From assembly GCA_964641945.1 (NCBI GenBank), contig CAZXLQ010000002.1:1-57323 (forward strand): 57,323 nt of DNA, given 5' to 3'. This document shows positions 12,049-43,765 of this stretch, piece by piece. Below the pieces are notes generated by a model, which was not told where the DNA came from, did no database searches, and saw nothing but the letters and a program-made list of their open reading frames with translations. The stretch comes from an uncultured Clostridia bacterium (GTDB taxonomy: Bacteria; Acidobacteriota; Blastocatellia; UBA7656; JADIYM01). The number at the start of each line of letters is the position of its first letter. Position 1 is the first letter of the stretch. The position numbers and the translations under genes are program-made.

Positions 12049-12056
12049 CGTGGTTC

Positions 12057-12668: not shown

Positions 12669-12670
12669 GG

Positions 12671-25138: not shown

Positions 25139-25265
25139 GCCGAGGTCCTTCCGTGCGATGCGCTACAGGCGGTGACACGCACGGGCCGAGTCGCATCAGG
25201 CTCGCGACACCTGAGGACCGTTGGCGCGTTGCTTCTTGTCCAATTGCCGGCAAGGGGCTGTGGAC

Positions 25266-25280
25266 GCAACCCTCGTGCCG
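25266..25280 (-). promoter_or_regulatory. Sigma54 promoter P5 (GGCACG-AGGG-TTGCG) for the MFS transporter
   Basis: The minus strand reads CGGCACGAGGGTTGCGTC, an exact GGCACG-N4-TTGC match ~125 nt upstream of the ATG at 25138. Confidence 0.7.
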
Positions 25281-25352
25281 ACAAACGACGTCCTGAAATC
25301 CCGCTTTTCGTGCGTACTTTCTCGGACGAAGCGGAGCATCGCCCCACGAAAT

Positions 25353-25366
25353 GTCTGTCTTCAGAC
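25353..25366. promoter_or_regulatory. GTCTG-N4-CAGAC inverted repeat; candidate UAS for P5
   Basis: Sequence is GTCTGTCTTCAGAC, 73-86 bp upstream of the P5 -24 element. The same 5-4-5 element (GTCTGGTTTCAGAC) lies 100-113 bp upstream of P1. Confidence 0.4.
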
Positions 25367-25864
25367 ACGTCGATGTCTGCAGAGCCGTGATTCCCTGTCA
25401 TGGCAGCGACAGGGCCAACAGCGAGGAGCAGGCGACCGTCGCTGGAGACCTGCACGTTGTAGGGAGAGATGGACGTCGCAATCGATTTGACCTGACCGGT
25501 GCTGAGATCAATCACGGTGATGGAGTTGCCCCGCCCGTCGGCCGTAAACGCGAAACCCGCCCCCGGCAAAACCTCCGACGAGGCGGCGGCGGAAGACCCA
25601 TTGGAGTTGCCTGTTCGCTCCTGGTGAACGGCAGCTGGCCGTGAACAGGCGGCTACGAGAACAAACAGGGCCGTGAGTAATGCAGGCCAGGCGAATTTGT
25701 TCATTGAAAAGTCCCCCTTTTCGGAGATCCGAGTTGCCCGGAACCGTCTCTCCGGAGCGGGCAATCGGTGTCTCGAGTCGCTCACCAGTTGCGATCTCGG
25801 ACAGGCACATCGAATCGACAGAGACACGGCCAGCCGCACGCCAGTCGCTCTCCTTCCGTTCATC

Positions 25865-26260
25865 TCACACGGCGCCCTGCGACTTCTCCAGGCGGTGGAC
25901 GCTGACGGTGCCGCAGCAGCCTCCGGCGCTGTCTACGACGGGCAGGCTCGTCGCGCCGTGCTCGTGGAGTTTCCGGCGCGCATCGTCAACGGGCTCGTCT
26001 GCGCCACAACACGCCGACAACGGTCGCATTATCTCCTCGACGCGAACGGCCGAGGCATTGCGGTCTTCGGCAACCACGCCGCAACAGACATCGCGCTCGG
26101 TGACGACGCCGACCATCTTGAGGGTGTCTGTATCCTCGACGACAGGCGCGCAACCGCAGCCTGAATCGCGCATCGCCCGGGCGGCGTGTGCCGCCGTGTC
26201 CCGTGGCGAGCAGCACGAGGACGCTTCAATTGGTGTCATCACTTCATTGCAACAAGTCAT
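25865..26260 (-). CDS. CBS-pair domain protein with 12 cysteines arranged as five CC pairs and one CGC
   Basis: 131 aa with CBS-like periodicity (MTP...P.DT...A...M...G.G..PVVED...L.GVVTERDV, then EEIM...ADEPV..A...L.EHG...LPVVD). Cys pairs are TCCN, SCCS, GCGC, VCCG, ACCG and GCCG. Confidence 0.75.
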   Translation of the reverse strand: MTCCNEVMTPIEASSCCSPRDTAAHAARAMRDSGCGCAPVVEDTDTLKMVGVVTERDVCCGVVAEDRNASAVRVEEIMRPLSACCGADEPVDDARRKLHEHGATSLPVVDSAGGCCGTVSVHRLEKSQGAV

Positions 26261-26478: not shown

Positions 26479-26643
26479 TCACGCCTCGGCTGCCTTGCTT
26501 GCATACTGCTCCGGGTGTTCATCAAATTTCGTTTTGCAGCCTTCGCCGCAAAAGTGATACGTGGTCCCCTGGTGTGTTGACTGCAGTGCGGCCGTTTGAT
26601 CTTCGATCGTCATGCCGCAGACAGGATCTGTATGTGTCGCCAT
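26479..26643 (-). CDS. YHS/TRASH-domain mini-protein
   Basis: Start at MATHTDPVCGMTIEDQ...YHFCGEGCKTKFDEHPEQY, preceded by GAGGAG. The ORF-track start lies 30 codons further upstream. Confidence 0.8.
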   Translation of the reverse strand: MATHTDPVCGMTIEDQTAALQSTHQGTTYHFCGEGCKTKFDEHPEQYASKAAEA

Positions 26644-26805: not shown

Positions 26806-29391
26806 TCAACGAGTCGTTCCGGTTGCTGACACCGCTGGGACGGCATCGCCGTTTGATGTCGGCTTCGGGATGGCGGCACCCAGTGCAGGCGCCGAGGACT
26901 CGGTCATCTTCACGCGCTTGAGCAACAGCGCGTTGGCGACCACGATCAAGGTTGAACCGGACATCGAGAGTGCTGCGACCTCGGGGCTCAGCAGCCATCC
27001 GGTCATCGGATAGAGCACGCCGGCGGCGAGCGGGAAGGCAATGACGTTGTATCCGGCGGCCCACCACAGGTTCTGCCGCATCTTGCGCCTCGTGGCACGG
27101 CTCAGGATGACGGTGCCGATCACGTCGAACGGGTCGCTCTTCATTAGCACCACATCGGCGGTCTCCATTGCCACGTCCGTGCCCGCGCCGATGGCGATGC
27201 CAACGTCAGCCTGCGCCAGCGCCGGTGCATCGTTGATGCCGTCGCCCACCATGCCGACGCGCAGCCCGCGCGCCTGCATCTCTTTGACCTTCTCCGCCTT
27301 CTCGCCCGGCTGGACCTCGGCGAAGACCGTCGTGATGCCGAGCGCTTTGGCAACCAGGTTGGCAGTGCCTTGATTGTCACCCGTCAACATCGCCACCTCG
27401 ATGCCGAGCGCCGCCATTCGGTCGATCGCCTGTTTCGCGTTCGGGCGAATCGCGTCGGCGATGGCGATGAGTCCGCCCGCAAAACCATCAATGGCGCAGT
27501 AGACGACGGTGTTTCCTTTCTGCTCGAGCGCCCGCGCCCGGTCGTCCAGTCTCTCGAGGGAAATGCGGTTGTCGTCCATCAGCTTGCGATTGCCGGCGAG
27601 CACTGTGCGCCCGTCGACGGTCGCACGCGCGCCGTGCCCCGGAATCGCCTCGAAATTCGACGGCGCGCTGAGCGTCACGCCGTCAGCCTTCGCCTTCTCG
27701 ATGACGGCTTGCGCCAGCGGATGCTCACTCGATTGCTCGAGCGACGCGACGAGCCGCAACAGTTCCTTGTCATCGACAGGCGTTGCGTCGACGACGATCT
27801 CAATGACTTGAGGCTGGCCAATGGTGAGCGTGCCCGTCTTGTCGAAGATGATCGCTTGCAGTCGGCCCGCCTCTTCGAGCGCGGTCGCATCCTTGAACAG
27901 TACGCCGTTCTCGGCGCCCTTGCCGCTCGCGACCATGATCGCCATGGGCGTCGCGAGCCCAAGCGCGTCGGGACAGGCGATGACCACGACCGTAATCGCG
28001 AGCAGCATGGCGAAGACCGCGGTCGCTCCGGCGAGCCAGAACCAGACTACGAACGTTGCGAGGCCGAAGACGACTGCCGAGATGGTCAGCACCTGCGCGG
28101 CGCCGTCGGCGAGTCGCTGCGACGGTGCTTTGGAGTTCTGCGCGGCCTGGACGAGCTTGACGATCTGGGCGAGTGCGGTTTCGGCCCCGACTCTGGTGGC
28201 GCGGAAGCGAAACGTCCCAATCTTGTTGATCGTCGCGCCGATGACCGCATCGCCGACACCCTTTCTGACAGGCATACTCTCGCCCGTGATCATTGATTCG
28301 TCGACGTTCGACTCGCCCTCGATCACGTCCCCGTCCACCGGGAGCTTGTCGCCCGGGCGGATCATCACGATGTCGCCCGTGACAACCTCGGAGGTCGGAA
28401 CCTCGACAGGCAGACCCTCGCGTATCACCGTCGCTTTCGGCGGCGCGAGGCTGAGAAGCGTCTGAACGGCTTTCGATGCTCCGGCCCGAGCGCGCATCTC
28501 CAGCCAGTGCCCGAGCAGAATGAAGACGAGCAGCATGGCGACCGCTTCGTAGAAGACTTCGGCCGTGAAGAAGAAGGTGGCACCGACGCTGAAGAGATAG
28601 CCCGCCAGCACGGAGAGTGAAACGAGCACCGCCATGTTGGCGACACCGTTCCTGAGCGCCCGCCACGCGCCCACGTAAAAGACCCACCCGCCGTACACGA
28701 CCGCCGGAGTTACAAGCAGAAACCCCAGCAGTTCCTTCGAGATTCCAAACGGCGTTGACAACGCAATGCCAGTGAGTTGCTGGAACATCGGCGCGTAGAG
28801 GTAGATGAGGAATGCGAGGGCGAGCGTTACGAAGAAGCGGTTGCGCATGTCGCGCACCATCCCGTCCATTGACGCTCCCATCCCGTGACCCATCTCCTGG
28901 GCCATCTCCGTCTTGTCCCGCCCCATCTCGTACGCCCTATGACCGGCGTGATCGTCAGCCTTCGCGACGCTCGCGGGCGGCCGGGGTTCAGCCTTGCCCT
29001 TGTGCTCCAGCGGTTTGACAACTTGTGGCGTGGCTGGGGCTGCCGCCGTGATTCTCTCGGCAATCGGTTTGAGCGCCGAGGGCGTCGGAGACAGCGGCCC
29101 GTCATGACCCTGATGCTCCATCGCGCCGACAGCCGGCGTCTCAGCCGGTGTGTCCGGCTTGCAAACGTGCGCCGGCACGACCGCGCCGCGGCAGTGGTAT
29201 CCGCAATCGGCAATGAAGCGGTTGATGTCATCCAGCGCGACGCGAGCCTCGTCGTAATCGATGGTCGCCGTACCAGTCAGAAAGTTGACGTCCACGCGCA
29301 CGACACCGGCGCGGCGTCTGAGCCGCTTCTCGACGCCTGCGTGGTCGAGAACTGACATCATCCCGTCGATTGCCACAGATGTTGTCTTCAT
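26806..29391 (-). CDS. Heavy-metal P1B-type ATPase, CopB-like, with a CPD transmembrane motif and a degenerate HMA domain
   Basis: Start at [10 protein letters not shown]. Catalytic motifs are TGES, DKTGTLT, SEHPLA and [12 protein letters not shown]6 reads [12 protein letters not shown], and TM8 reads MSGST (P1B-3-like MSxST). The N-terminal ferredoxin-like domain has GMMSVLDH instead of GMTCxxC. A His/Met-rich linker is present ([31 protein letters not shown]). Confidence 0.9.
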
Positions 29392-29614
29392 GATTTGCGT
29401 CAGCGAAGCCCTGAGGATGATTCGCCTGCCCACCGCACATGAACACTCCGGCGTCGCCGCCGATGCTCGAGCCGCGGGCAGGCTCGCGAACTGAAGAAAC
29501 CCGTTGTGATCTGTCGGTGCGAGACGGTTGTTTCTCGGGAAAGGAAGAAACCGGCGGCCTGCCTGCGCTAGAAGCACCGTGACGAGAAACTGAGTCGCTC
29601 GACGAACCTCCAAG

Positions 29615-29630
29615 GGCAATCAGCGTGCCA
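29615..29630 (-). promoter_or_regulatory. Sigma54 promoter P2 (TGGCACG-CTGA-TTGCC) for the ATPase operon
   Basis: The minus strand reads GATGGCACGCTGATTGCCC, a full consensus match. The -12 element lies ~225 nt upstream of the ATG at 29391. Confidence 0.75.
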
Positions 29631-30024
29631 TCAGCCGAAGACGCATCGATGCCGCGCGTTCGTTGCTGCAGATGAGACCTGCGCCAGCATGAATGGATGC
29701 GTTCGTTGCACAACATCCGTACAGGTGCACCAAAGCAGGACACTCGTCAAATGCCAAATGAATGCCGCAGGATGGAGAGTCCGACACTTGCCTTGTGTTC
29801 CGGACGAGCGACGCACAGTTCATGCCAAAGACCTCGCCGGGGAGGCCGCCCCTCCCGAAAGGACCTGAATCCGGAGCACGAGTGACGGGCTATCCTCGAC
29901 GTTTTGGGTCGGCGGCGGATTGAAATGAACGTGGCCGGAAGCGGCGGGCCGGATCCATGCCAGCACGCTGGCCCGAATCGAACTCCGGCCCTGCGGGAGC
30001 TCTCGCGGCCGCACCTTTCCTCGA

Positions 30025-30038
30025 GGCACGTGAATTGC
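30025..30038 (+). promoter_or_regulatory. Sigma54 promoter P7 (GGCACG-TGAA-TTGCG) for the Met/His-rich protein operon
   Basis: The plus strand reads GAGGCACGTGAATTGCGCT, an exact GGCACG-N4-TTGC match ~185 nt upstream of the ATG at 30222 and divergent from P2. Confidence 0.7.
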
Positions 30039-30221
30039 GCTAGGGACTGCAGGTAGGTGCGACTCCGTCGCCGTTATTCGAGACAGTCATTGCCCGGCGT
30101 CGACTGGAAAACAGCGACCGACGCGAACGGAGTGAAACGCGCCCCACGAGACCCGGTGCATGAGCGCCGAAACACGGAATTCGAGCGTGCTCGTCCACGA
30201 GCACAGAAGGAACGACCAATC

Positions 30222-30767
30222 ATGAAGACAAGAGCAGAGATCTCGATAGTCGCGTTGCTCGCGCTGACGATATTCGGCGCGGGAAGCGCGATGGCGCTCG
30301 CCCGACAGCATCATGGTGCGGAAAAGCCGATGCAGCACGGCACGGGGAAAATGGACATGTCCGGAATGATGGCCGAGCCGCACCACGTGCTCGCCATGGC
30401 CTACATGCAGAACCTGGGAGCATTCACGCACGCCCTGCGCCATCAGTCCGAAGCGGTCAGTCCGCTCGACGCGGCCTTTGCCCGCTCCGCGGTCGATGAG
30501 ATCAAGCGGAGCTTCGACGAGATGGAGAAGCATCACGGCGAGCACATGAAGACGATGAGCACTGAAATGCGCACGCACATGGAAGCGATGATGAAGGAAA
30601 TGGGTATGCACCGGGCCATGCTCAAGGACTCGGTCGGTGCTCTCGACAGGGACGTTCAATCCGACCATATCGACGCGAAGAAGGTGGCGGCGGACTGCGC
30701 GGTCATTCTCGAGCATCTCGATGCGATGTCGAAGATGCACGCCGACAAGAAGCCGATGAAGATGTAG
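30222..30767 (+). CDS. Secreted Met/His-rich all-helical protein (possible CopM/DUF305-like periplasmic copper binder)
   Basis: Start at MKTRAEISIVALLALTIFGAGSAMALA. The mature part has HHGAEKPMQHGTGKMDMSGMMAEPHH and EKHHGEHMKTMSTEMRTHMEAMMKEMGMH. The family name is a guess. Confidence 0.65.
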   Translation: MKTRAEISIVALLALTIFGAGSAMALARQHHGAEKPMQHGTGKMDMSGMMAEPHHVLAMAYMQNLGAFTHALRHQSEAVSPLDAAFARSAVDEIKRSFDEMEKHHGEHMKTMSTEMRTHMEAMMKEMGMHRAMLKDSVGALDRDVQSDHIDAKKVAADCAVILEHLDAMSKMHADKKPMKM

Positions 30768-32635: not shown

Positions 32636-33493
32636 TCACACTCGGATCAGGTCGACGGAAACCTCGAAATCGTCCGAAACCGTGAGGATGTGATTCGGAG
32701 CGACCCGTTTCCAACCGCGTCGTTCCTCCGTGAGAGGCTCGGAAGCGACGATTACCGACGGCTCGTCGGGCGGCCGACGTTCGAGCTTCGCCATTCCGTC
32801 GTCGAGGACGAGCTTCAGCCCAACGGCGAAATAGAGCGACACCGGCTCGAGCTGTGAGTCCGACCCGTAGCGGGCCATCGCCAGTCGCTCGCCGTCGGTG
32901 ACCGCGAAATTGTAGAAGGAAGGGGCGCAAACGCCGGCCTCCGAGGACCAGCGCTCGAGCCGTCGGATTGTCTCGACGAGCGCCTCACCCAGCGCGCTCG
33001 CCGAGTCGGGGCTGCCATCGCGAATGAGAGAGAGGAACACCGCGAAGGCGTGCTCGGAATCGGTCGTCCCCTGAATGCTCTCGTAGGCCGCGTCGTCGAG
33101 CGACGCGCGCAGTCGCCGCTTGATACTCGCGAATCCACCAATCGCGCCGTTGTGCATCCAGAGATAGGGGCCGCACTGGAACGGGTGGCAGTTCTCCTCG
33201 GAGACTCGCATCCCCGCGGAAGCGGCTCGCACGTGGGCGAAGAAACAGGGCGACCGGATGTGCCCCGCAAGGCGGCGCAGGTTCTGATTCCCCCAGGCGG
33301 GAGTCACGCTCGTGAAGACGCAGGGGGTCGCGTCCACGCCCGGTACGTACCACCCGACGCCGAATCCATCTCCATTGAGTGGTTCGGCCCGCTCGCGAGC
33401 CTTGTACGACTGCGTGATCAACGAATTCGGCGGTCCACAAAGCAGCTCTTCGAGAAGCAGCGCTGGCCCGCGATAACAGATGAACCTACACAT
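32636..33493 (-). CDS. Class-II (Ntn) glutamine amidotransferase, YafJ/EgtC-like
   Basis: N-terminal MCRFICYRG provides the Cys nucleophile directly after Met1. NGDGFGVGWY and HPF...WMHNGAIGGF motifs are present. It overlaps the upstream YHS gene by 8 nt. Confidence 0.75.
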   Translation of the reverse strand: MCRFICYRGPALLLEELLCGPPNSLITQSYKARERAEPLNGDGFGVGWYVPGVDATPCVFTSVTPAWGNQNLRRLAGHIRSPCFFAHVRAASAGMRVSEENCHPFQCGPYLWMHNGAIGGFASIKRRLRASLDDAAYESIQGTTDSEHAFAVFLSLIRDGSPDSASALGEALVETIRRLERWSSEAGVCAPSFYNFAVTDGERLAMARYGSDSQLEPVSLYFAVGLKLVLDDGMAKLERRPPDEPSVIVASEPLTEERRGWKRVAPNHILTVSDDFEVSVDLIRV

Positions 33494-33665
33494 CGTGCGC
33501 CACGTCGAGGGCGGGCGCCTCCTCGCCGGCGTAGTCCTCCGGATGGCGCTCGAATTCGAGCAGGCAATGCTCTGAGCAGAAGAGATAAACGCAGCCGCCG
33601 TATTCGAGCTCGAATGTCTCGGAGTCTCGACTGACGGCCATGCCGCAAACCGGATCCCAGGTCAT
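33486..33665 (-). CDS. YHS/TRASH-domain mini-protein
   Basis: Start at MTWDPVCGMAVSRDSETFELEYGGCVYLFCSEHCLLEFERHPEDY, with AGGAGG 7 nt upstream. Confidence 0.8.
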   Translation of the reverse strand: MTWDPVCGMAVSRDSETFELEYGGCVYLFCSEHCLLEFERHPEDYAGEEAPALDVAHDV

Positions 33666-33724
33666 ATGAACACCTCCTTTCAGCATTGTCACCGTCGGGC
33701 CGCGGCAGCGGATGCGATCTCCGC

Positions 33725-35269
33725 CTAAACGGCGATCTCGAAATTGCGCGCCATACCGGCGTCGGAATGCTCGAGGTTGTGGCAGTGCACGAGATACACG
33801 CCCGCGAAGTCGTCGAACCTCACCAGCACGCGCACTCGTTCGCCCGGCATCACCAGTACCGTGTCCTTCCATCCCTCGTCGACGAAACCGGCTGACACCG
33901 ATCGCCACCCGGCTTCGAATCGAGGGTCGATCTGTCGCTCGAAGACCTGAAACTGGAAGCCGTGAAGATGGATCGGGTGCGCCATACCCGCACCGTGCAT
34001 TCCGGCGCTCGTGTTCTCGATGTCCCAGGCCTCGAGTGCACCGAGGCGCACGACTTCGTCGGGCAGGACTTCGTCCATCTCGAACGTGCGACCGTTGATC
34101 GACCAGCCGAACGGCGGATCCATGGTGAGCGCGAGGCGGCGCGGGCTGACCGCATTCGTCGCGTCCTCGAGCCGATAGCGGGAAATGGTCGACAAGCGCG
34201 AGGGCATCTCGAATCCCTGCGGCCCACGCCGCCGCATCCGGACGGTGAAGACGGAAAACTCGGCCCCGTTCGGGATTCTGGTGTTGCCCATCATCCCGCC
34301 CATGTCCGCTCCCGAGAATGCACGACTCAGCATCCGGAGCGACGTGCCTTTGCGATAGCGCCGGAAGTCGGCAATCACGTCGACGCGCTCGCCCGGCGCG
34401 AGGGTCACGTAGGGCCGGGCCAACGGCGCTTCGAGCAGCCCCCCGTCGGTCGAGATGACGGTCAAGGGCGACTCGTCACTCCATCCGAGCTTGTAGATGC
34501 GCGAGTTCGACGCATTGACGAGCCGCAGGCGATAGACCGACCTCTGCACATCGAGCGTGAATCCGGCCCGCCCGTTGACGAGGATCGTATCTCCAAGCGC
34601 GCCGCCGAAGTGGCCGCCGTGTCCCATCGAGGTGTACGTGAACTGGTTCGCCGAGTCGAATGACCGGTCCTGGATCACGAGCGGGATGTCGTAGTCGCCC
34701 GATGGCAGACGCGCCGCGTCTTCCTCCTCGTCGGAGACGAGGAGCAATCCCGCGAGACCGTTGTACACCTGCACGCCCGTTCGACCGTGTGGGTGGGGAT
34801 GGAACCAGTAGGTGCCGGCCCGGTCGGTGATCGGAAACTCGTACGCGTATTCGGCACCCGGCGCGACGGCGTCGCGGGGATGGCCGTCCATTTCCGGTCT
34901 GACGTGCATGCCGTGCCAGTGCACGATCGACGGCTCACGCAAACCGTTGATGAATCGGACTCGCATCGACTGGCCGCGTCTCGCACGGATGATCGGACCA
35001 AGATACCCGTCGGCAATCGGCGTCGCGGCCGACGCGTCGCCGACAAGCACGCGAGCCGTGTACGCCCACGTGTTCGTTGTACGTCCTGGAAGCAGCTGCG
35101 ATGTCGCGGGCGACGCGGTCAATTGGAGGTCGAGTCCAGCGGCCGTCTTCGTCGATCCCTCGATGGTCTGCCCGTCCAGTGCAAGCACGGGTCTGGCTGC
35201 AAGTGTGCACATCCCCAATCCGACCCAGGAGAGGAAATCGCGCCGGTCAAGCGTCGTTCTGGACGACAT
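33725..35269 (-). CDS. Multicopper oxidase (CueO/CopA/PcoA type), TAT-exported
   Basis: Twin-arginine signal is SSRTTLDRRDFLSWVGLG. Copper-ligand motifs are HWHGM, WFHPHPHG, HPIHLHG and HCHNLEHSDAGM. Confidence 0.9.
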   Translation of the reverse strand: MSSRTTLDRRDFLSWVGLGMCTLAARPVLALDGQTIEGSTKTAAGLDLQLTASPATSQLLPGRTTNTWAYTARVLVGDASAATPIADGYLGPIIRARRGQSMRVRFINGLREPSIVHWHGMHVRPEMDGHPRDAVAPGAEYAYEFPITDRAGTYWFHPHPHGRTGVQVYNGLAGLLLVSDEEEDAARLPSGDYDIPLVIQDRSFDSANQFTYTSMGHGGHFGGALGDTILVNGRAGFTLDVQRSVYRLRLVNASNSRIYKLGWSDESPLTVISTDGGLLEAPLARPYVTLAPGERVDVIADFRRYRKGTSLRMLSRAFSGADMGGMMGNTRIPNGAEFSVFTVRMRRRGPQGFEMPSRLSTISRYRLEDATNAVSPRRLALTMDPPFGWSINGRTFEMDEVLPDEVVRLGALEAWDIENTSAGMHGAGMAHPIHLHGFQFQVFERQIDPRFEAGWRSVSAGFVDEGWKDTVLVMPGERVRVLVRFDDFAGVYLVHCHNLEHSDAGMARNFEIAV

Positions 35270-35413
35270 GGTTCACCTCGAGTTGGTGAGCTTGCCTCTT
35301 TCGAGGAAACGCCGAGAGTCATAGCCTCGGCACCGTGAGAAGTCGCAACGAAATCGACGCGCCGCCAGAAGGACCATGATGATAGTACTCCTCGTGCGTA
35401 CATCACGCCTGAA

Positions 35414-38400
35414 CTACACCGAAACGGGATTCACGGCAGGCGCCGTCCACCGTGCCTTCACCTCGCCGTGCCACCTCCAGAGTGCGAAGATCGCCGGATA
35501 GACGGCGAGCTCGAGCACGAACGACGTGAAGATGCCGCCGATCATTGGCGCCGCAATGCGCTTCATCACGTCGGCGCCGCTCCCCGTCGACCACATTATG
35601 GGAACGAGTCCCATGAACATCACCCCCACCGTCATCACCTTCGGCCGCAGCCGCTTGACCGCGCCGTCCAGAACCGCCAGTCGCAGGTCGTTCCAGTTGC
35701 GCATCAGCCCCTTCTTCTTTCGGTCCTCATACGCGATGTCGAGATAGAGCAGCATGAACATCCCGGTCTCGGCATCGACGCCCATCAGCGCGATCAGACC
35801 GACCCAGACGGCGACGCTCATGTTGTAGTCGAGCGCGTAGAGGAACCAGATCGCGCCGACGGCCGAAAACGGGACCGCCACGAGGATGAGCATCGTCTTC
35901 GCGACCGACCGCGTGTTGAGGTAGATCAGCAGGAAAATTGCGAAGATCGTGATCGGAACGACCACCATCAAGCGCTCCTTCGCGTGCTCCATGTTCTCGA
36001 ACTGTCCGCTCCAGATGAGCTCGTACCCGGGCGGCTGCTTGACGCGTTCGCGAACCGCCTTCTTTGCGTCTTCGACGTAGGACCCGACGTCGCGCTTCGA
36101 CGTGTCGAAATCCACGAAGACGTATCCCGACAGGCGGCCGTTCTCGTTGCGGAGCATTGCCGGCCCTTCGACGAACTTGATCTCGGCGATCTGGGCGAGC
36201 GGGATCTGCGCCATGCCGTCCATTGAAACGAGCACGCGGCCGAGCCGGTCCGGGTCGCTTCGGAAGTCGCGCAGGTACCGAACGTTGATGGGGTATCGCT
36301 CCCGCCCTTCGACGGTCGTCGAGACGTTCTCGCCGCCGATAGCCTGCATCACGGCCATGTTGGCTTCCTCGACGCTCAGTCCGTACCGGGCGAGCTGCTC
36401 CCGTTTCAACTCGAAGTCGAGAAAGTACCCGCCGGCTGTCCGCTCCGCGAACACGCTCTTCGTTCCCGGCACGTCGGCCAGGGCGCCCTCGATCTCGAGC
36501 CCAACGCGCTGGATCTCGGCCAGGTCCGCACCGAGCACCTTGATTCCGATCGGGGTCCGTACGCCGGTCGTGAGCATGTCGATCCGGCCCTTGATCGGCA
36601 TGGTCCACGCGTTCGTGACGCCCGGGATCTGGAGCGCTTCGTTGAAGCCGCCGGGACCGTAGATGACTTCGTCGACGCTCTTGTGGTCCGGCCACGCGCG
36701 ACGGAGCAGCCCCTGAAGCCAGTCCGGCGCCCACGAGGAGTACCAGCGTTCCGACTTCGGCCACTCGGACTCGGGCTTGAGCACGACCACGGTTTCGAGC
36801 ATCGAGAACGGCGCCGGGTCGGTGGCCGTGTCGGCGCGACCGGCCTTGCCGAACACCCGTTCCACCTCCGGGTAGGACTTCAGGATTCTGTCCGTCGTCT
36901 GCAAGAGGGTGTTCGCCTCGGTCACGGAGATGCCGGGCATCGTCGTCGGCATGTAGAGAAGCACGCCCTCGTTGAGCGGCGGCATGAACTCGGAACCGAG
37001 CTTCTGGAATACCGGCACGGTCAGGGCCACGACGAGCACGGCCATGCCGATCGTCAGCCACGAGTTCCGGAGCACCCACTCGCAAACCGGGTGATAGAGC
37101 TTCATCAGGGGACGGCTGATGGGGTGGTTCTCTTCGCTGTGGATCTTGCCGACCAGAACGGCGTTCGTGACCCGGGCAGCCAGCTTCGGCCTGAACACGT
37201 ACGGATCCATTCGCGTGAACATCAGCCGGATCGCCGGGTCGAGGGTGATTGCAAGAAACGCCGCGATCGCCATCGCGAAGTTCTTCGTGTAGGCGAGCGG
37301 CGAAAAGAGCCGCCCTTCCTGCCCTTCGAGCGTGAAGACGGGCACGAACGCGACGGCGATGACGAGAAGCGCGAAGAAGCTCGGGCCTCCGACCTCCTTC
37401 ACCGCTCCGATGACGACGTCCTTGTAGTTGCCGGGACGTCCGTCCGCATTCCAGTGCTCGAGCTTCTTGTGTGTCTGCTCGACGACGACGATCGCCGCGT
37501 CGACCATCGCGCCGATGGCAATCGCAAGGCCACCGAGCGACATGATGTTCGCCGTCATTCCGCTCCCGTACATCGGGATGAACGCGATGACGATCGTGAT
37601 CGGAATCGTGACGATCGGCACGAGCGCCGACGGGAAGTGCCAGAGGAAAATCATGATCACGAGCGAGACGATCAGGAGCTCCTCGACGAGGGTGCCCTTG
37701 AGCGTTTCGATCGAACGCTCGATGAGCTCGGCGCGGTCGTAGGTCGTGACGATCTCGACGCCTTCGGGGAGCGAAGGCTTCAGCTCCTCGATCTTGTTCC
37801 GAACGCGCTCGATGACGTCGAGGGCGTTCTCGCCATACCGCATGATGACGATGCCGCCGACCGTTTCGCCCTGCCCATCGAGCTCGGCAACGCCTCGCCG
37901 CATGTCGGGACCGAGCGCCACGACGCCGAGGTGCTTGAGCAGGACGGGCGTCCCGCCTTTCGCGTTCGTCGCGACAACGATGTTCTCGATGTCTGCGACG
38001 CTCTTCACGTAGCCGCGGCCGCGAATCATGTACTCGCGGCCGGCGACTTCGAGGAGGCGTCCTCCGATTTCCTGGTTTCCACCGCGCACGGCCTCGAGAA
38101 CGCGCTCGAGCGTCACGTTGTAGGCGGCCAGGGCGTTCGGGTCGAGGTTGACCTGATACTGGCGGACGAAGCCCCCGAGCGGCGCGACCTCCGCGACACC
38201 GGGCAGCGACTGCAGCGCGTACCGCAGGTTCCAATCCTGGAAGCTGCGCAGCTCCGCGAGATCGAGGTTCCCCGTCCGGTCGACGAGCGCATACTCATAG
38301 ACCCAACCGACGGCCGTCTCGTCCTTCGCGAGCTCGACGGTCACGCCTTCGGGCAGCCGCGGAGTGACGTTGCTCAGGTACTCGAGCGTGCGGCTGCGCG

Positions 38401-38713
38401 CCCAGTAGATGTCGGTCCCCTCCTCGAAGACGACATAGACGTACGAGAACCCGAAGTCCGAGAAACCTCGAATGTCCTTGACCCGCGGCATTCCGAGCAT
38501 CGACGAGACGATGGGGTAGGTCAGCTGGTCCTCAACGATGTCGGGACTGCGGTCCCATTTCGAGTAGACGATGACCTGCGTATCCGAAAGGTCCGGGATC
38601 GCGTCGAGCGTCACTCGGCGCATGGACCAGACCCCGCCGATCGTCAGGGCGCCGACCGCCAGGAATACCAGGAACGGGTTTCGCGCCGAGGCCTCGATGA
38701 TGCGATTGATCAT
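35414..38713 (-). CDS. cusA: CusA-type Cu(I)/Ag(I) efflux RND transporter (pump 2)
   Basis: 1099 aa. The N-terminal 180 aa aligns closely by eye with E. coli CusA (DAIPDLSDTQVIVYS..., GFSYVYVVFEEGTDIYWARSRTLEYL, GWVYEYALVDRTGNLDLAELRSFQDW). Confidence 0.9.
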   Translation of the reverse strand: MINRIIEASARNPFLVFLAVGALTIGGVWSMRRVTLDAIPDLSDTQVIVYSKWDRSPDIVEDQLTYPIVSSMLGMPRVKDIRGFSDFGFSYVYVVFEEGTDIYWARSRTLEYLSNVTPRLPEGVTVELAKDETAVGWVYEYALVDRTGNLDLAELRSFQDWNLRYALQSLPGVAEVAPLGGFVRQYQVNLDPNALAAYNVTLERVLEAVRGGNQEIGGRLLEVAGREYMIRGRGYVKSVADIENIVVATNAKGGTPVLLKHLGVVALGPDMRRGVAELDGQGETVGGIVIMRYGENALDVIERVRNKIEELKPSLPEGVEIVTTYDRAELIERSIETLKGTLVEELLIVSLVIMIFLWHFPSALVPIVTIPITIVIAFIPMYGSGMTANIMSLGGLAIAIGAMVDAAIVVVEQTHKKLEHWNADGRPGNYKDVVIGAVKEVGGPSFFALLVIAVAFVPVFTLEGQEGRLFSPLAYTKNFAMAIAAFLAITLDPAIRLMFTRMDPYVFRPKLAARVTNAVLVGKIHSEENHPISRPLMKLYHPVCEWVLRNSWLTIGMAVLVVALTVPVFQKLGSEFMPPLNEGVLLYMPTTMPGISVTEANTLLQTTDRILKSYPEVERVFGKAGRADTATDPAPFSMLETVVVLKPESEWPKSERWYSSWAPDWLQGLLRRAWPDHKSVDEVIYGPGGFNEALQIPGVTNAWTMPIKGRIDMLTTGVRTPIGIKVLGADLAEIQRVGLEIEGALADVPGTKSVFAERTAGGYFLDFELKREQLARYGLSVEEANMAVMQAIGGENVSTTVEGRERYPINVRYLRDFRSDPDRLGRVLVSMDGMAQIPLAQIAEIKFVEGPAMLRNENGRLSGYVFVDFDTSKRDVGSYVEDAKKAVRERVKQPPGYELIWSGQFENMEHAKERLMVVVPITIFAIFLLIYLNTRSVAKTMLILVAVPFSAVGAIWFLYALDYNMSVAVWVGLIALMGVDAETGMFMLLYLDIAYEDRKKKGLMRNWNDLRLAVLDGAVKRLRPKVMTVGVMFMGLVPIMWSTGSGADVMKRIAAPMIGGIFTSFVLELAVYPAIFALWRWHGEVKARWTAPAVNPVSV

Positions 38714-38719
38714 GGATGC

Positions 38720-40402
38720 CTACTTCCGTTTCGGAGACTTGCTCTTGCCGGTACGGACCGGCTCGAGGTTCATCCCGCAGTACGGGCATTTTCCCGGCTG
38801 GTCCGAGATGTAGCTGGGGTGCATCGAGCAGGTCCACTTGCCTTCGACAGGCTCCTTTGGCGGGGCCGCCGACGGCTTCGCTCCAGAGCTGGAGTGATCC
38901 GTCTTCGAATGATCAACCGGCGCCGGGTCCGGCGCGGGAGTCTGGTTCGATCGATCCGCCGCCGGGGCCTCACCACCGGCCGGCGCGCCGCCGTGACCCG
39001 CGTGCGGTCCTCCCATCGCCGCTGCCGCGCTCTTGAGCTGGCTCTCGGAGTCGACGAGGAAATTCCCCGACGTGACGACGCGCTCGCCGGCCGCGAGCCC
39101 GGCCAGCACGACGTACTTCCCTTCGAACCGCTCGCCGATCGTGACCTCGCGCGGCTCAAAGTATCCGCCTTCGAGCGCGACGAAGACCCTGTCCTTGAGG
39201 CCCGAACGCATCACGGCCTCCTCGGGCACGAGCAACTGCTCGCCGGAGTCGACGGCGATCTCGACGTCGGCGTACATGTCGGGCTTGAGCTCGAAGCGCG
39301 GGTTCGGCAGGTCGATCCGCACCTTCAGCGTCCGCGTGTCGGCGTTCAGCTCCGGATAGATGTACGAGACCCTGCCGCGGAACGAGCGGCCCGGAAAGGC
39401 CGCCAGCGTGACCGTCGCCGGTTGCCCCACCCGCACCTGGGCCGACTCGTACTCGTAGACGTCGGCGATGATCCAGACGGTCGAAAGATCCGTGAGGGCG
39501 TAGAGCTCCGTCTCGGAAGTCACACGCTGTTTGAGAAATGCATTTCGCGCCGTGACGAATCCGGTGGCCTGCGCGTGAAGGGTGATCGTTCGCGACGCAG
39601 TTCCGCGCTTCTCGATCGCGTCGATCTCTTCAGCCTTGAAGTCGAACAGCTCGAGCCGCCGCCGCGCGGCCCGGTAGAGCAGATCTCCACTCTCGGGAAC
39701 GCCGGCGACGCCGCTTCCCGCGAGCTCCTGTCGCGCTCGACGCGCGAGCAGCAGCTCCTCCTGTGTCTGGTGGATTTCCGGACTGTAGATGTCGACGAGT
39801 GGTTCGCCCACACCGACGAGTTTGCCGACGGAATCGACGTGCACCCGCTCGACCCAGCCGTCGTACTTTGCGTGCACCTTGGTGACCTTGGTCTCGTCAT
39901 AGGCGAGCCGGCCGACGGCGCGGATCGATCTCGACACCCGTTCGGAGGTGACGTCGCCGAGCCGGACACCGATCAGCTGCTGTTTCTGCGCGCTGATCTC
40001 GATGACTCCCGGCGGCAGAGTCGAGTTGCTCGCGCCGCCGTCGGCGTACACCGGGACGAGGTCCATTCCGCAGTCGGGCGCCGTCCCCGGCTTGTCGGAG
40101 GTGTAGGCCGGGTGCATCGGGTCCACCCAGTACAGGACCTTCCGTTCTCCGGCGTCCTCCTCCGTTTTTCCCATTCCGAAGAGTCGATCCCGAAAGGCAT
40201 ATGCGCCTCCGGCCGCAACAAGGATGAGGAGGACGACGATGGCCGTTCGGCCACTTCGCGAAGGTGAGCCGGAACCCCTCTGGTCGGACTCGGAAGCGAC
40301 GTTGTCGGACTGCTGCACCGGCTCGTCAATGCTGCGCTCGGACCCAGATCCTGTTTCGGTGCCCTGCGGGTCCTTCGCATCGTCATTGTCGATTGTGCTC
40401 AT
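38720..40402 (-). CDS. cusB: CusB-type RND adaptor carrying heavy-metal-binding (HMBD/YHS-like) motifs at both ends
   Basis: 560 aa with an MFP core. The N-terminal motif is YWVDPMHPAYTSDKPGTAPDCGMDLVPVY and the C-terminal motif is WTCSMHPSYISDQPGKCPYCGMNLEPV. Confidence 0.85.
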   Translation of the reverse strand: MSTIDNDDAKDPQGTETGSGSERSIDEPVQQSDNVASESDQRGSGSPSRSGRTAIVVLLILVAAGGAYAFRDRLFGMGKTEEDAGERKVLYWVDPMHPAYTSDKPGTAPDCGMDLVPVYADGGASNSTLPPGVIEISAQKQQLIGVRLGDVTSERVSRSIRAVGRLAYDETKVTKVHAKYDGWVERVHVDSVGKLVGVGEPLVDIYSPEIHQTQEELLLARRARQELAGSGVAGVPESGDLLYRAARRRLELFDFKAEEIDAIEKRGTASRTITLHAQATGFVTARNAFLKQRVTSETELYALTDLSTVWIIADVYEYESAQVRVGQPATVTLAAFPGRSFRGRVSYIYPELNADTRTLKVRIDLPNPRFELKPDMYADVEIAVDSGEQLLVPEEAVMRSGLKDRVFVALEGGYFEPREVTIGERFEGKYVVLAGLAAGERVVTSGNFLVDSESQLKSAAAAMGGPHAGHGGAPAGGEAPAADRSNQTPAPDPAPVDHSKTDHSSSGAKPSAAPPKEPVEGKWTCSMHPSYISDQPGKCPYCGMNLEPVRTGKSKSPKRK

Positions 40403-40455
40403 TGCGGCTCCTCTTCATGTCACTGCCCGTGTGGCGCACGACGTGCAGCACGACG

Positions 40456-41214
40456 TCAGTGCTGATGCTCCGCCGGTGGCGGCGCTGCGACGCGCAACGG
40501 AGCCGGACGGTAGATCCGCTCCCAGATTGCCTCGTAGGCTGCGTCCGGCATGGCTTCCTTCACCGCGAACGTGTAGGCCTTTGGCCCGCCCGATTCGCGC
40601 TCCCAGGTCGCGAGCTCGAGCCGGAACGGGTCCGGCCGGCTCACGCCTCGAAGATCGGACCAGAGCCACGTGCGCGATCCCTTTCCCGAGTCGGAAACGA
40701 AGACGAGCCGGTCGTCGTAGACCGCGATCGTCCCCTGGCAACCACCGAACCGGTGGTGGTGCTTGACGGCCAACTCGGCGATCGGCTGCCCTTCCCGGTC
40801 GGTGAACCAGGTGATGAACGGCTTCGGCATGCGGCTGCGCAGAAAGTCACTCACTTCGCTCGTCAGCTCGCCGCCGACGATCTCGAGCGTGAAGACCCTG
40901 TCCATTCCAAAGAACTTGTTGTCCTCGTAGGTCGTGATTCGAATTCGGGTCTTCGAAAGGACTTCGAGCCGCTGGATGTCGCGATACGTCCACGATCCGC
41001 CGTGCTCGCCGTCCTTCGATCGATACTCGACCTTCTCGGCGGTAAGCGTCAGCGTGCCGTCGCGGTCTCGCAGCATCCGGCCGTGCCGGACGGTAAACGT
41101 GTACTCCTGTGCATCCGGACCGTCCGCACTCGCCTTCGTCGACAACGACACCAGCGCCAGCGCGCACGCCGCGAGTGCCAGGATGACCCTTGTCGTGATG
41201 ATTCCGCTCTGCAT
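40456..41214 (-). CDS. Secreted protein of unknown function with two related ~100-aa repeats
   Basis: Start at MQSGIITTRVILALAACALALVSLSTKASA, preceded by GGGAGG. The two halves share a G.L.L....V.F.S......W.Y.DI pattern. An HHHRFGGCQG motif is present. The track ORF of 476 aa is an artefactual extension. Confidence 0.6.
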   Translation of the reverse strand: MQSGIITTRVILALAACALALVSLSTKASADGPDAQEYTFTVRHGRMLRDRDGTLTLTAEKVEYRSKDGEHGGSWTYRDIQRLEVLSKTRIRITTYEDNKFFGMDRVFTLEIVGGELTSEVSDFLRSRMPKPFITWFTDREGQPIAELAVKHHHRFGGCQGTIAVYDDRLVFVSDSGKGSRTWLWSDLRGVSRPDPFRLELATWERESGGPKAYTFAVKEAMPDAAYEAIWERIYRPAPLRVAAPPPAEHQH

Positions 41215-41233
41215 CGTGCGCCTCCCGATCCGA

Positions 41234-42136
41234 CTATTCCTTCCTGTCCCGTTGCGGCTCCGCGTCCATTCGCGACCAGATCGCGAGAACGGACGGGACA
41301 TACGCCAGCGTTTCGGCCGGCAGGAGCCGTCGCCTCGACATCTCGTCAAAGTCCCGGACTCCGGTCCGGCGAATGACGCTCCAGACTCTTCCCTCACCTG
41401 CGTTGTAGGCTGCGAGCGCGAGCTTCCAGTCGCCGAACTGGCCGTGCAGATCCCGCAAATACCGGGCTGCAGCTCGCGTCGCAAGCGCAGTGTGGGTCCG
41501 ATGATCGACCGCACCGTCAACCGAGAGCCCGTATCGGCGCGCAGTCGCCGGCATGAACTGCCACACACCGCGAGCGCCCTTCGGCGAGAGCGCCATCGGG
41601 TTGAACCCGCTCTCGACATACGCGACCGAGAGCAGGGCAAGCGGCACTCGCTCCTCGGCGAGTATCGGGCCGAGCGACACGCGCGCGGCGGCGAGTCGCG
41701 TGTGAAGCGCCCGGGGCAAGGGGCGCGCGTCGGGAAACACGAACCGCTCGGCAAGAGGCGTGGGCGACAAGGCCTCACGTTCAAGGGCGATCGCCTTTGC
41801 AAGTTCCCCGGCGAGGCTGTCGACGCTCGCGGGACCGAGCTCGGCGGCGATGTTCTCCGCAAATGCGAGAGAGGTGCTGGCCGCAACCATGTCGCCGCGC
41901 TTTCGCGCCACGACGCCTTCCGAGACGTGACGCGACGCTTCGATCACCTGCTCCGCGGTTCGAGCGCTTGCCTCGATCGAGCTCTCGATCCGCGCCATGG
42001 CGAGCGATACCGGATCGGTGGCGGGCTCCGGGGACGGCGCCTGCCATGCACCCGCCTCCGAGCCGAACGCGAACACGATGGCCAGGAGTGCGAGGATCGC
42101 TCGTTCGATCCGGAGAGACTTTCGGGAATCCGTCAT
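41234..42136 (-). CDS. Lytic transglycosylase (SLT domain) protein
   Basis: The catalytic region is LLSVAYVESGFNPMALSPKGARGVWQFMPATARRYGL, followed by AAYNAGEGRV. An N-terminal signal/anchor is present. It overlaps the OMF stop by 4 nt. Confidence 0.8.
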   Translation of the reverse strand: MTDSRKSLRIERAILALLAIVFAFGSEAGAWQAPSPEPATDPVSLAMARIESSIEASARTAEQVIEASRHVSEGVVARKRGDMVAASTSLAFAENIAAELGPASVDSLAGELAKAIALEREALSPTPLAERFVFPDARPLPRALHTRLAAARVSLGPILAEERVPLALLSVAYVESGFNPMALSPKGARGVWQFMPATARRYGLSVDGAVDHRTHTALATRAAARYLRDLHGQFGDWKLALAAYNAGEGRVWSVIRRTGVRDFDEMSRRRLLPAETLAYVPSVLAIWSRMDAEPQRDRKE

Positions 42137-43464
42137 CGGAGTAGCCTGCCGACGAGTGGCTCGATCATGGCAATGGCCTTCTCGAGGTTCGCCAGCTGTT
42201 CGTAGTAGCCGAGCTCGTAGGTAAAGAGCGTCTTCAGGTCGTCGAGCAGCATCAGGAAGTCGATGCCACCGGTTTCGTACGCGGCGATCCCGGACTCGAG
42301 CGTGAGCGTCGCCTGCGGTATCGTGGCCGTCGCGTAGAGATCCGCGAGCTTCTCGGACGTGAGCGCCATGAGATAGGCGTCCTTGATCTTGAAGAAGAGC
42401 AATGCCTGGGCGCTCTCGAGCCGCTTGCGTTCCGCTGCCATTGCCGAGGAGGCTTCGGCGACTGCCGGACGCTGTCTCTGCCAGAAGTAGAGAGGGAGCT
42501 TCACGCCGAACATCACGCCGTGCATTTCGGGCATGCCGGGCCGGTTGACGTAGGTGTAGGCGACGGACATGTCCGGGTAGAACTGCTTCTCGGCGAGCCG
42601 CAGGGCGAACTGCTCACGGTCGATGCGGCTTCTCTGCTGCCTGAGGATCGGGCTTGCCTGCGCCATTTCGTTGAGCAGATCGAGCGTGAAGTCGATCGGC
42701 CGCCGGACGATGTCCGCCGGCGCACCGAGCGGCGAGTCCGGGTCGCGGTACATCAACACGTTGAGCCGGGCCGCGGCCGACGCCTGGCGCTGCTCGAGCA
42801 TCGTGAGCATCTCGGTCATCCGCGTGACCTCGAGCTGCGCCTTCAGCAAGTCCTGCTGCATGCCCTTGCCGACGGCATACCGAGCCTCGGCGATCTTCGT
42901 CACGCGCTCCATCAGCAGCCGGTTCTTCGTGACGGTCTCGATGGCTTTCGCCAGGTAAGCAAGGTCGAAGTAGACGGCCTTGACGTCGGCGACGACCATT
43001 CGGCGAGACTGCTCGAAGGCCCACCACTCGGCTTCGGCCTCGGAGCCGGCCATCTTGCCCATCAGCGCGAGCTTGCCGGGCCACATGATCTCCTGTGTGA
43101 CGGTCACGATGCGGCCGCTCGACGGGTCGCCGTTCTGGACGTCGAACGGAACGATGCTGCCCATCGAACCGACCTCGAGCATCGGCTCGGGCCAGGCCTT
43201 GGCCTGCGGCACGCGAGCCGTCATGGCGTCGAAGTTGCGCGCCATCGCCGCGATCTCGGGGTTGTGCTCGAGCGCCTCGGCGATGACGTGATCAAGAAGC
43301 AGTTGCGGGGGTGCGTCCGGCGCGGAGCCGGCGCGAGCTTCTGCGCGAGGCGGTGTCGGCGTCGCGGACCCCGTCTCCATTCTTCCCTGCGCGAAAACAC
43401 TGCCGTGGGAAAGAACCACGGTCGCCACTGACACGGCGGTGAGTACTCGGTTCGTTCGGTTCAT
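42133..43464 (-). CDS. TolC/CusC-family outer-membrane efflux factor (OMF 2)
   Basis: Start at MNRTNRVLTAVSVATVVLSHGSVFAQG, preceded by GGAAGGA. It has a typical two-repeat OEP sequence. Confidence 0.85.
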   Translation of the reverse strand: MNRTNRVLTAVSVATVVLSHGSVFAQGRMETGSATPTPPRAEARAGSAPDAPPQLLLDHVIAEALEHNPEIAAMARNFDAMTARVPQAKAWPEPMLEVGSMGSIVPFDVQNGDPSSGRIVTVTQEIMWPGKLALMGKMAGSEAEAEWWAFEQSRRMVVADVKAVYFDLAYLAKAIETVTKNRLLMERVTKIAEARYAVGKGMQQDLLKAQLEVTRMTEMLTMLEQRQASAAARLNVLMYRDPDSPLGAPADIVRRPIDFTLDLLNEMAQASPILRQQRSRIDREQFALRLAEKQFYPDMSVAYTYVNRPGMPEMHGVMFGVKLPLYFWQRQRPAVAEASSAMAAERKRLESAQALLFFKIKDAYLMALTSEKLADLYATATIPQATLTLESGIAAYETGGIDFLMLLDDLKTLFTYELGYYEQLANLEKAIAMIEPLVGRLLR

Positions 43465-43538
43465 AGGCCGTTTTCCTTCCTGCGAGCCGAGTCGACGTGC
43501 CCACGAGATCACGAATCGACACGCGCGCGAGTTCCTTG

Positions 43539-43554
43539 AGCAATCGCCGTACCG
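43539..43554 (-). promoter_or_regulatory. Sigma54-like promoter P4 (CGGTACG-GCGA-TTGCT) for the OMF2-cus2 operon
   Basis: The minus strand reads GCGGTACGGCGATTGCTC, with correct GG-N10-GC spacing, ~75 nt upstream of the ATG at 43464. The same element is conserved in the relic copy at 21870-21885. Confidence 0.55.
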
Positions 43555-43711
43555 CAATTCTGATCCGGCTTCTCGACTGGACTTCGAGCAGTTCGCCAGC
43601 ATCGTGCCTAAAGACCAGGCGCTGCTCCGGGCCGGGCGCAATTGGCGTTGCCTGTTCGACTTCCGCTGCATTCGAGTCCGCAACAGACAGCGTCGGACAG
43701 CAAGAATGCCA

Positions 43712-43765
43712 GACGAACATAAATACAACTTAAACTCGCAAATCTAAACGCAACATAAACTTACG
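43712..43765. promoter_or_regulatory. AT-rich block with four phased TAAA(C/T) boxes (copy B) between OMF 2 and the divergent response-regulator gene
   Basis: It is the reverse complement of copy A with 8 mismatches in 54. Box spacing of 11-14-11 bp is preserved. Candidate functions are an OmpR-family binding array, a DNA bend, or the promoter of the divergent two-component operon. Confidence 0.4.

Follow-up and report, generated by a model that had tools for sequence, protein, structure and literature searches.

The 57,323-nucleotide contig CAZXLQ010000002.1 (assembly GCA_964641945.1; positions 1 to 57,323 of the forward strand, placed by GTDB in the Blastocatellia of the Acidobacteriota), referred to here in its whole length as the window, encodes on its reverse strand a P1B-type ATPase of the CPD subtype of the CopB lineage (26806..29391; 861 amino acids by translation of the open reading frame, ORF). 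We consider this pump to be a functional ATP-driven copper exporter of the CopB lineage in which an aspartate replaces the histidine or cysteine ligand of the transport site, a reading to which we give a probability of roughly 0.6. The anatomy of the protein, its clade membership, its conservation and its gene context are established. The copper exporter reading is preferred because the catalytic motifs are intact, the score with the copper P-type ATPase model TIGR01511 is high and Cu(I) pumps are the closest relatives of solved structure; because the other residues of the Cu(I) site are retained, the pump belongs to a clade of CPD and CPH pumps and its CPD motif is invariant; because genes for YHS/TRASH proteins, a CueO-like oxidase, CusA, CusB with HMBD, an outer-membrane factor and a DUF302 protein are present in the window; and because multicopper oxidase, DUF2933 and ICMT-like genes are neighbours of CPD pumps elsewhere, including the copper context found on the Rhodococcus plasmid pRHL3.

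The residue that follows the proline of helix M4 is the main handle for sorting P1B pumps into metal classes, and the interest of a CPD pump is that it represents a natural variant at this key selectivity position. For CopB-type pumps there is disagreement over the substrate, with cases made for both Cu(I) and Cu(II), and a lineage with a strictly conserved change from His to Asp constitutes a natural experiment. Knowing what CPD pumps carry would help to interpret metal resistance genes in metagenomes; should they carry plain Cu(I), a carboxylate could stand in for a thiolate or an imidazole in a copper pump.

The CPD transport site

The motif Cys473-Pro474-Asp475 (codons TGT CCC GAC, 27967..27975; all coordinates within the pump are on the reverse strand) was found exactly where an initial annotation, made from the letters of the window, had placed it. 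It lies in helix M4, the sixth transmembrane helix in sequential order (27928..28020; residues 458-488 in an AlphaFold2 (AF2) model), and is invariant in alignment A1. The counterpart of D475 in A. fulgidus CopA is C382, and the YN and MxxS ligands of the two proteins align too. The Cu(I) ligands of CopA, which we take to be the Cys of CPC, the Tyr and Asn of M5 and the Met and Ser of M6, have their equivalents in the pump except at position 475. Residues common to the CPC, CPH and CPD groups, namely M253, E298, C473, Y781, N782, M810 and S813, are all present; Y781 and N782 are kept in the three groups and M810 and S813 are universal. The sole position of the M4 motif that separates the groups is 475, which is D, H or C, each in 100% of the sequences.

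Helix M5 (27001..27132, with N774, Y781 and N782) fits both the N(x)6YN(x)4P pattern of P1B-1 and the N(x)5GYN(x)4P pattern of P1B-3. Helix M6 (26917..26985) bears the motif MSGST at residues 810-814 (26950-26964; M810, S813 and T814), which ends in ST and conforms to the P1B-3 pattern MSxST, the P1B-1 pattern being M(x)2SS. The initial annotation had taken MSGST for a CopB signature; the fit is correct, but the motif is not a feature of the CPD clade, most members of which show MSGSS, with Ser at position 814 where the window pump has Thr. The marks of P1B-2 (the M5 Lys and the DxG of M6) and of P1B-4 (SPC and HEGxT) are missing. Judged by strict signature, the pump fits neither class, as it lacks the CPC and CxxC of P1B-1 and the CPH of P1B-3.

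The aspartate at position 475 is genuine. A protein identical to the pump is encoded, together with the same downstream genes, on five contigs of separate assemblies. The 801-base stretch around the Asp codon (27600-28400) was recovered with 100% of sampled words in at least 20 public runs of at least 10 studies, from sludge, soil and biofilm, and contigs of four such runs span the codon with zero differing letters. A survey of the frequency of CPD, which the initial annotation had suggested, found the motif in all 120 of the best protein clusters (down to 60% identity), where it reads (I/V)ACPDALGLA(T/M)P. A GTDB scan (one genome per species) gave at least 592 relatives, 80 loci being kept for locus counts; CPD is present in all 79 readable ones, and the clade so defined is spread over several phyla. 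The Asp codon, compared over 82 loci, is GAC in 41 and GAT in 41, and C-P-D is written in 12 codon combinations, which shows that the amino acid is under purifying selection. That the codon arose by an error of sequencing or assembly, a possibility contemplated in the initial annotation, is excluded by the independent assemblies, the runs and the relatives. Read joints at 27252 and 27824 were considered as rearrangements, but they stem from other P-type ATPases that cross-match at GDGIND and DKTGT.

Reading frame, catalytic core and family scores

Translation starts at the ATG at 29391, in agreement with the N-termini of full-length homologues; the upstream TTG at 29619 indicated by the ORF finder was dropped, as the homologues begin MK(T/E)T. 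The 861 codons run without interruption and all the catalytic P-type motifs are present. The actuator domain (28132..28449) contains TGES at residue 369 (28276-28287), and the phosphorylation and nucleotide-binding domains (27133..27894) contain DKTGT at 517 (27829-27843), SEHPL at 555 (27715-27729) and GDGIND at 716 (27229-27246). Eight helices (residues 175-198, 219-247, 253-274, 281-314, 423-453, 458-488, 754-797 and 803-825), in line with the MA, MB and M1-M6 of P1B pumps, were delimited in the AF2 model, which was built from 55 relatives and, with a mean predicted local distance difference test (pLDDT) of 63.6 and a predicted template modelling score of 0.46, was used for secondary structure only. 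In the region upstream of the pump (29392-30218) no convincing promoter, Shine-Dalgarno sequence, operator palindrome or Rfam match was detected.

Based on Pfam searches, the pump matches E1-E2_ATPase, Hydrolase and HMA. Among the NCBIfam models, the heavy-metal model TIGR01525 gave 619 bits (cut-off 346) and the copper P-type ATPase model TIGR01511 gave 605 bits (cut-off 397); the scores with the CopA and ZntA equivalog models are far under their cut-offs (341 versus 1240 for the ZntA models). Among proteins of solved structure, the relatives closest to the pump are Cu(I) pumps, with A. fulgidus CopA (3J09) on top and HMA4, L. pneumophila CopA and ATP7B among them. When the soluble domains are compared, A. 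fulgidus CopB (3SKX) scores 243 bits versus 230 bits for the CopA domain.

Phylogenetic position and distribution of CPD pumps

A neighbour-joining tree of 161 sequences and 700 columns was rooted with E. coli ZntA and included E. coli CopA and the His-rich plasmid CopB of Staphylococcus equorum. CPD and CPH pumps are joined in it against the CPC pumps with a bootstrap of 100/100 (99-100/100 across trees); the CPH pumps alone are grouped with 99/100, on a branch that contains the S. equorum CopB, and the main CPD clade with 88/100. The residues L435, A439, G443, P754, A785, S811 and A821 occur in CPD and CPH pumps and are not found in CPC pumps, and a juxtamembrane motif GH...M..M..RN(R/K)F is common to the first two groups. 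On the strength of the common clade, the CopB-only residues and the juxtamembrane motif, the "CopB-like" label of the initial annotation is well founded.

CPD carriers were identified in the Acidobacteriota, Gemmatimonadota, Chloroflexota and Actinomycetota and in the Alpha-, Beta- and Gammaproteobacteria, with the gene often located on a plasmid, and the cultured ones include Pseudomonas (for example P. proteolytica DSM 15321), Cupriavidus (for example C. consociatus), Ralstonia, Bradyrhizobium, Mesorhizobium, Novosphingobium and Rhodococcus, with R. jostii RHA1 carrying its CPD pump on plasmid pRHL3. The closest relatives of the window pump come from metagenome-assembled genomes of Gemmatimonadaceae and Pyrinomonadaceae with 77-89% identity, those of Gemmatimonadaceae reaching 88-89%. 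When 50%-identity representatives were used (1.84 billion searched), seven of the best 150 matches were CPD pumps and the others were mainly CPC, with few CPH.

Two deep CPD lineages (P0121 and P0123) are located near the base of the CPD/CPH group, on either side of it. They have His-rich N-termini, with one CxxC in P0121, and their M6 motifs are MSLSS and MSAST. From this basal placement, Asp may perhaps be an older state than His at position 475.

The N-terminal domain and candidate cytoplasmic metal sites

The first 66 residues of the pump form an HMA-fold domain (29194..29391, delimited with Pfam HMA and AF2) in which GMMSVLDH, at residues 10-17 (29341-29364), stands instead of GMxCxxC. 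The Pfam HMA match is weak yet above threshold (28.4 bits versus 24.8, residues 8-66) and was obtained in 55/55 aligned relatives. Residues 2-62 were modelled as beta-alpha-beta-beta-alpha with pLDDT of about 78-86, and residues 64-173 as disordered. No CxxC is present in the N-terminal domain of any of the 188 aligned members of the CPD clade. The initial annotation described an SxxD pseudo-HMA domain: the HMA fold, the missing Cys pair and GMMSVLDH are all there, but SxxD itself is half conserved, since 157 of the 188 pumps have S13, while at position 16 there is Ser in 105 of them and Asp in 61.

Two candidate metal sites that were absent from the initial annotation are better conserved than SxxD. 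The first is a Cys/His tail, C63-G-Y-H66-C67-x7-H75-x-C77 (29161..29205), in which C67 is conserved in 87% of the 188 aligned pumps, H75 in 82%, C77 in 66%, H66 in 55% and P73 in 97%. The second closes the linker that follows (residues 78-185, 28837..29160), which ends in an E-M-G-H-G juxtamembrane motif. The linker had been called His/Met-rich, and it is modestly so: residues 64-184 contain 8 His and 8 Met in 121 positions, 6.6% each versus 1.4% His and 3.7% Met in the whole protein. In the Met-Gly-His motif before the first membrane helix, M167 is kept in 187/188 pumps and G168, H169 and R183 in 188/188, and the methionines that come after it (M175, M178 and M182) are conserved in 89-96%. 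This juxtamembrane motif is also present in the staphylococcal CPH CopB, which reads GHMVMEFRNKFF. By their conservation, the Cys/His tail and the Met-Gly-His/Met motif would be the likelier cytoplasmic metal-handling sites, putatively relocated.

Copper genes around the pump

The nearest downstream gene, 162 bases from the pump, encodes a 54-amino-acid YHS/TRASH protein (26479..26643, reverse strand; C9-x22-C32-x3-C36; 67.8 bits with Pfam YHS) and adjoins the pump in the same order on all the contigs with the identical pump. It is a candidate cytoplasmic copper chaperone for the pump. On the upstream side, a DUF302 protein is encoded divergently, and family matches define a copper island context on the reverse strand (33486..43728). 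This island includes an outer-membrane factor (42133-43728), a CusB-like adaptor with HMBD (38720-40402), a CusA-like RND pump (35414-38713) and a CueO-like multicopper oxidase (33725-35269), directly after which comes a second YHS/TRASH ORF (33486-33665; MTWDPVCGMAV...CVYLFCSEHC). A histidine kinase gene is located further along the island side. The window contains two TRASH proteins, and neither a CopZ-like protein nor a second P-type ATPase was identified within it.

CPD loci in other genomes

Neighbour counts were made over the 80 loci, and no partner is universal. ICMT/PEMT-like methyltransferases were found in 26 of them, MFS proteins in 18-31, DUF2933 in 14, multicopper oxidases in 13-16, PPK2 in 13, beta-CASP hydrolases in 12, YHS proteins in 10 (within 6 kb of the pump) and DUF6629 in nine. 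The upper figure for MFS corresponds to relatives detected by tblastn (31/80); 15 of these are directly downstream of the pump on the same strand, and they occur across phyla. One of the MFS genes outside the window lies at 11433-12713 of locus L081, and in Nitrobacter the MFS and pump genes overlap by 4 bases. The neighbours of the CPD pump on Rhodococcus pRHL3 are a second pump, of the CPC type, a CsoR-type regulator, HMA proteins and a multicopper oxidase. DUF2933 and ICMT-like methyltransferase genes also accompany copper-induced merR-copA islands in Alteromonas (PMC8478169).

In proteobacterial loci (L016-L080; for example L024, L041 and L081) the CPD pump is often found with PPK2, universal stress proteins, phosphoketolase and acetate kinase, and a thymidine-phosphorylase-like protein, a PRPP-synthetase-like protein and a beta-CASP RNase are encoded there as well. 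Such a set of genes recalls the lxa island of Burkholderia cenocepacia, which is activated by low oxygen and includes an induced "cation-transporting ATPase" and a metal-dependent RNase (PMC3721108).

Comparison with known P1B systems

A full-text literature search with CPD and P1B vocabulary returned a sole relevant paper, the 2017 survey of Rhizobiales by Cubillas et al., where a "novel CPD motif" defines a subtype of P1B-3 (group VIc) (PMC5552934). CPD thus has a precedent among P1B motifs, contrary to what the initial annotation had supposed. The pumps of that survey are plasmid-borne, come from Xanthobacter, Nitrobacter and Bradyrhizobium and amount to three sequences with no experiments (PMC5552934). 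Full-length plasmid matches to the window pump, with 54-55% identity, were found in Nitrobacter X14, Bradyrhizobium BTAi1 and Xanthobacter Py2; among these three, CPD was read directly only in the X14 copy. The window pump has in common with the Cubillas subtype the CPD in M4, the YN(x)4P in M5, few N-terminal His, a length greater than that of typical CopB and a place beside the CPH pumps. It differs in showing MSGST in M6, where the group has MSGSS, and in coming from a non-proteobacterial lineage. The CPD clade is far larger than the 2017 set and extends over several phyla. The window pump is a further member of a large subtype that had already been noticed, and it is ordinary in its occurrence. 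The initial annotation had reckoned with an already characterised subgroup of known specificity; of this, the searched literature supplies a description of the subgroup but no specificity.

CopB (P1B-3, from A. fulgidus, Enterococcus hirae and a staphylococcal plasmid) represents the sister or enclosing lineage of the CPD pumps. The window pump and CopB share the lineage residues, N(x)5GYN(x)4P, MSxST and a His/Met motif before the first membrane helix. Unlike CopB, the window pump has Asp in place of the His of CPH and an extra HMA-fold domain of about 65 residues, with the Cys/His tail, before a much less His-rich linker: 8 His in the 121-residue linker region versus roughly 20 in the first 60 residues of S. 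equorum CopB. Later work on CopB reportedly argued for Cu(I) as its substrate. The substrate cited for the A. fulgidus protein in the Rhizobiales survey is Cu(II) (PMC5552934).

With CopA (P1B-1; 3J09 and 3RFU) the window pump shares the eight-helix core, the A, P and N domains, the entry Met and the ligands YN and MxxS, and CopA structures are its best sequence matches in the PDB (E value 5e-166). However, it has CPD for CPC and an HMA domain without CxxC, and it falls outside the CPC group in the tree. The likeness to ZntA and CadA (P1B-2) is one of chemistry only, that of P1B ATPases with an acidic residue in the membrane site; the Asp of the pump is in M4, whereas that of ZntA is in M6, and the M5 Lys and DxG are missing.

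Proposed mechanism and alternative explanations

From these data we infer a scheme in which copper would be the substrate and the periplasm the destination, with putative roles for the YHS/TRASH protein, the N-terminal motifs and Asp475. Cytoplasmic Cu(I) would be caught by the YHS/TRASH protein, by the Cys/His tail and by the Met-Gly-His/Met-rich juxtamembrane motif, and would then pass, at the membrane platform, to M253 as the entry Met. In the membrane it would be bound by Cys473 and Asp475 of M4, Tyr781 and Asn782 of M5 and Met810 and Ser813 of M6. Phosphorylation of Asp517 would occlude the copper, which would subsequently be released to the periplasm and taken over there by the CueO-like oxidase and the CusCBA-type system. 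Asp475, which stands where CopA has its second Cys and CopB its His, could act as a third ligand or as a residue for proton-coupled release.

Several points weigh against a copper exporter. A carboxylate is unusual as a Cu(I) ligand and better suits Cu(II), Zn(II) or protons. Asp475 is separated from DKTGT by 44 residues, a spacing identical to that of the Glu of TPE in E. coli MgtA, and this match places it where P2 and P3 pumps have their cation-binding M4 Glu, for which we take the PEGL of SERCA as comparison. The commonest immediate neighbours over the 80 loci are not copper-specific (MFS 14/150, PPK2 10, universal stress proteins and carbon-metabolism genes), and no CueR-, CsoR- or CopY-type copper-sensing regulator is adjacent to the pump in the window. 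On the favourable side, fragments identical to the pump gene were found in RNA libraries from sludge, wastewater and compost and are consistent with expression in situ, but this evidence is at contig level, of low depth, non-quantitative and open to DNA carry-over. The AF2 model is too poor for transport-site geometry. Finally, the searched literature contains no transport, ATPase or resistance assay for any CPD pump.

Part of these observations would also be explained if the CPD site served not for Cu(I) export but for Cu(II) or a harder divalent ion (Zn, Co, Ni, Fe, Mn or Pb), or if Asp475 supported proton counter-transport, in which case the pump would belong to a distinct P1B subgroup. D475 is invariant and set apart from His and Cys over a deep phylogeny, although His and Asp codons are one base apart, which argues that the states are not interchangeable; it coincides with the M4 Glu position of P2 and P3 pumps, and ZntA pairs an essential membrane Asp with CPC for divalent ions. 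In addition, both Cys of the HMA fold are lost in all the members, the immediate neighbours in many genomes are non-copper genes and the substrate of CopB is itself disputed between Cu(II) and Cu(I). Yet the signatures of the divalent subgroups P1B-2 and P1B-4 are missing, all the ligands for soft metals that Cu(I) pumps possess (Cys, Met, Tyr/Asn and Ser) are kept, the surroundings in the window are those of a copper/silver island, and cytoplasmic copper is Cu(I), which would leave a Cu(II) exporter without an obvious substrate pool. For these reasons we regard such an altered selectivity, the main alternative and, as to Cu(II) or harder cations, the idea put forward in the initial annotation, as rather improbable. 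The broader proposition, that the CPD clade with its hundreds of species and many plasmids is a functionally new P1B subgroup whose ion specificity or coupling is unlike those of CopA and CopB, be it for Cu(II), for another borderline or hard divalent ion or through obligatory proton counter-transport by a carboxylate placed where Ca, Na/K and Mg pumps have theirs, seems to us doubtful. Were it true, the subgroup would rely on N-terminal Cys/His and Met-Gly-His sites of its own, and part of the clade on YHS/TRASH and MFS partners as well.

Less likely still is a role in housekeeping or stress instead of detoxification, with the pump as a low-flux ATPase for copper or another cation that would supply a periplasmic or membrane enzyme, such as the adjacent multicopper oxidase, or maintain ion balance in low-oxygen or stationary-phase stress. 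A multicopper oxidase gene lying next to the pump or close to it in 13-16 of the 80 loci would be in keeping with this role, as would the proteobacterial set of PPK2, universal stress proteins, phosphoketolase, acetate kinase and beta-CASP RNase and its resemblance to the lxa island (PMC3721108). However, the lxa ATPase could not be shown to be a CPD pump, the surroundings of the pump in the window consist of resistance genes of the classical kind (CusCBA, CueO-like) beside a fragment of a Tn3 transposase, and frequent carriage on plasmids better fits an accessory resistance. That faulty sequencing or assembly produced the Asp codon, or that the ORF is a pseudogene, can be practically dismissed, as the same sequence recurs in independent assemblies and runs, the frame of 861 codons is unbroken with its full set of catalytic motifs and about 200 relatives keep CPD without exception while its codons vary synonymously, the only weak point being the lack of a recognisable promoter or Shine-Dalgarno sequence upstream.

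Other features of the window

The apparent operon of the pump and the 54-amino-acid YHS/TRASH protein continues on the reverse strand with the gene of a CBS-pair protein (25865-26260), an ORF (25135-25863) that is lipoprotein-like but aberrant at its C-terminus, and the gene (23903-25138) of an MFS exporter of the DHA1/Tet(A)-like type. The MFS protein was also considered as a CcoA-like copper importer, an option rejected by its scores, which are those of a DHA1/Tet(A)-like exporter. The ORF at 25135-25863 has a lipoprotein-like start at an internal Met, MNKFAWPALLTALFVLVAACS, a beta-propeller-like segment and an Arg-rich end of low quality. It gave no family match and showed no similarity to the DUF6629 neighbour of the Nitrobacter pump, of which it had been considered a relative; a frameshift or a truncation may have left it as a remnant. 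Where the pump operon ends, on the other side of the pump from the CusCBA and CueO-like genes, a fragment of a Tn3-family DDE transposase lies beside an ORF with a weak "Heavy-metal resistance" (CpxP/Spy-like) match (22796-23332, reverse strand, and 22239-22799, forward strand).

Upstream of the pump and divergent from it, a secreted His/Met-rich protein of 182 amino acids with a signal peptide is encoded on the forward strand (30219-30767). It has no match in Pfam or NCBIfam, and a relative was found in only one of the 80 loci (L012). Within the copper island, an ORF of 476 amino acids (40456-41886) between the adaptor and the outer-membrane factor and another of 113 amino acids (43730-44071) after the outer-membrane factor, both on the reverse strand, are without family match. 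The 57-kb window contains three RND pumps of the AcrB/CusA type (5957-9154, 35414-38713 and 48960-52523), each with its own adaptor or outer-membrane genes.

Three test stretches of the window (19200-20200, 27600-28400 and 36500-37500) were recovered with 100% of sampled words in many metagenomes of many studies, from sludge, wastewater, soil, compost and biofilm. A mobile island as the cause of this identical sequence is unsupported, as a GH57 gene outside the island is equally cosmopolitan. Since all three stretches are widespread, the host looks like a cosmopolitan, nearly clonal wastewater or soil bacterium and the sequence does not look like a travelling island.

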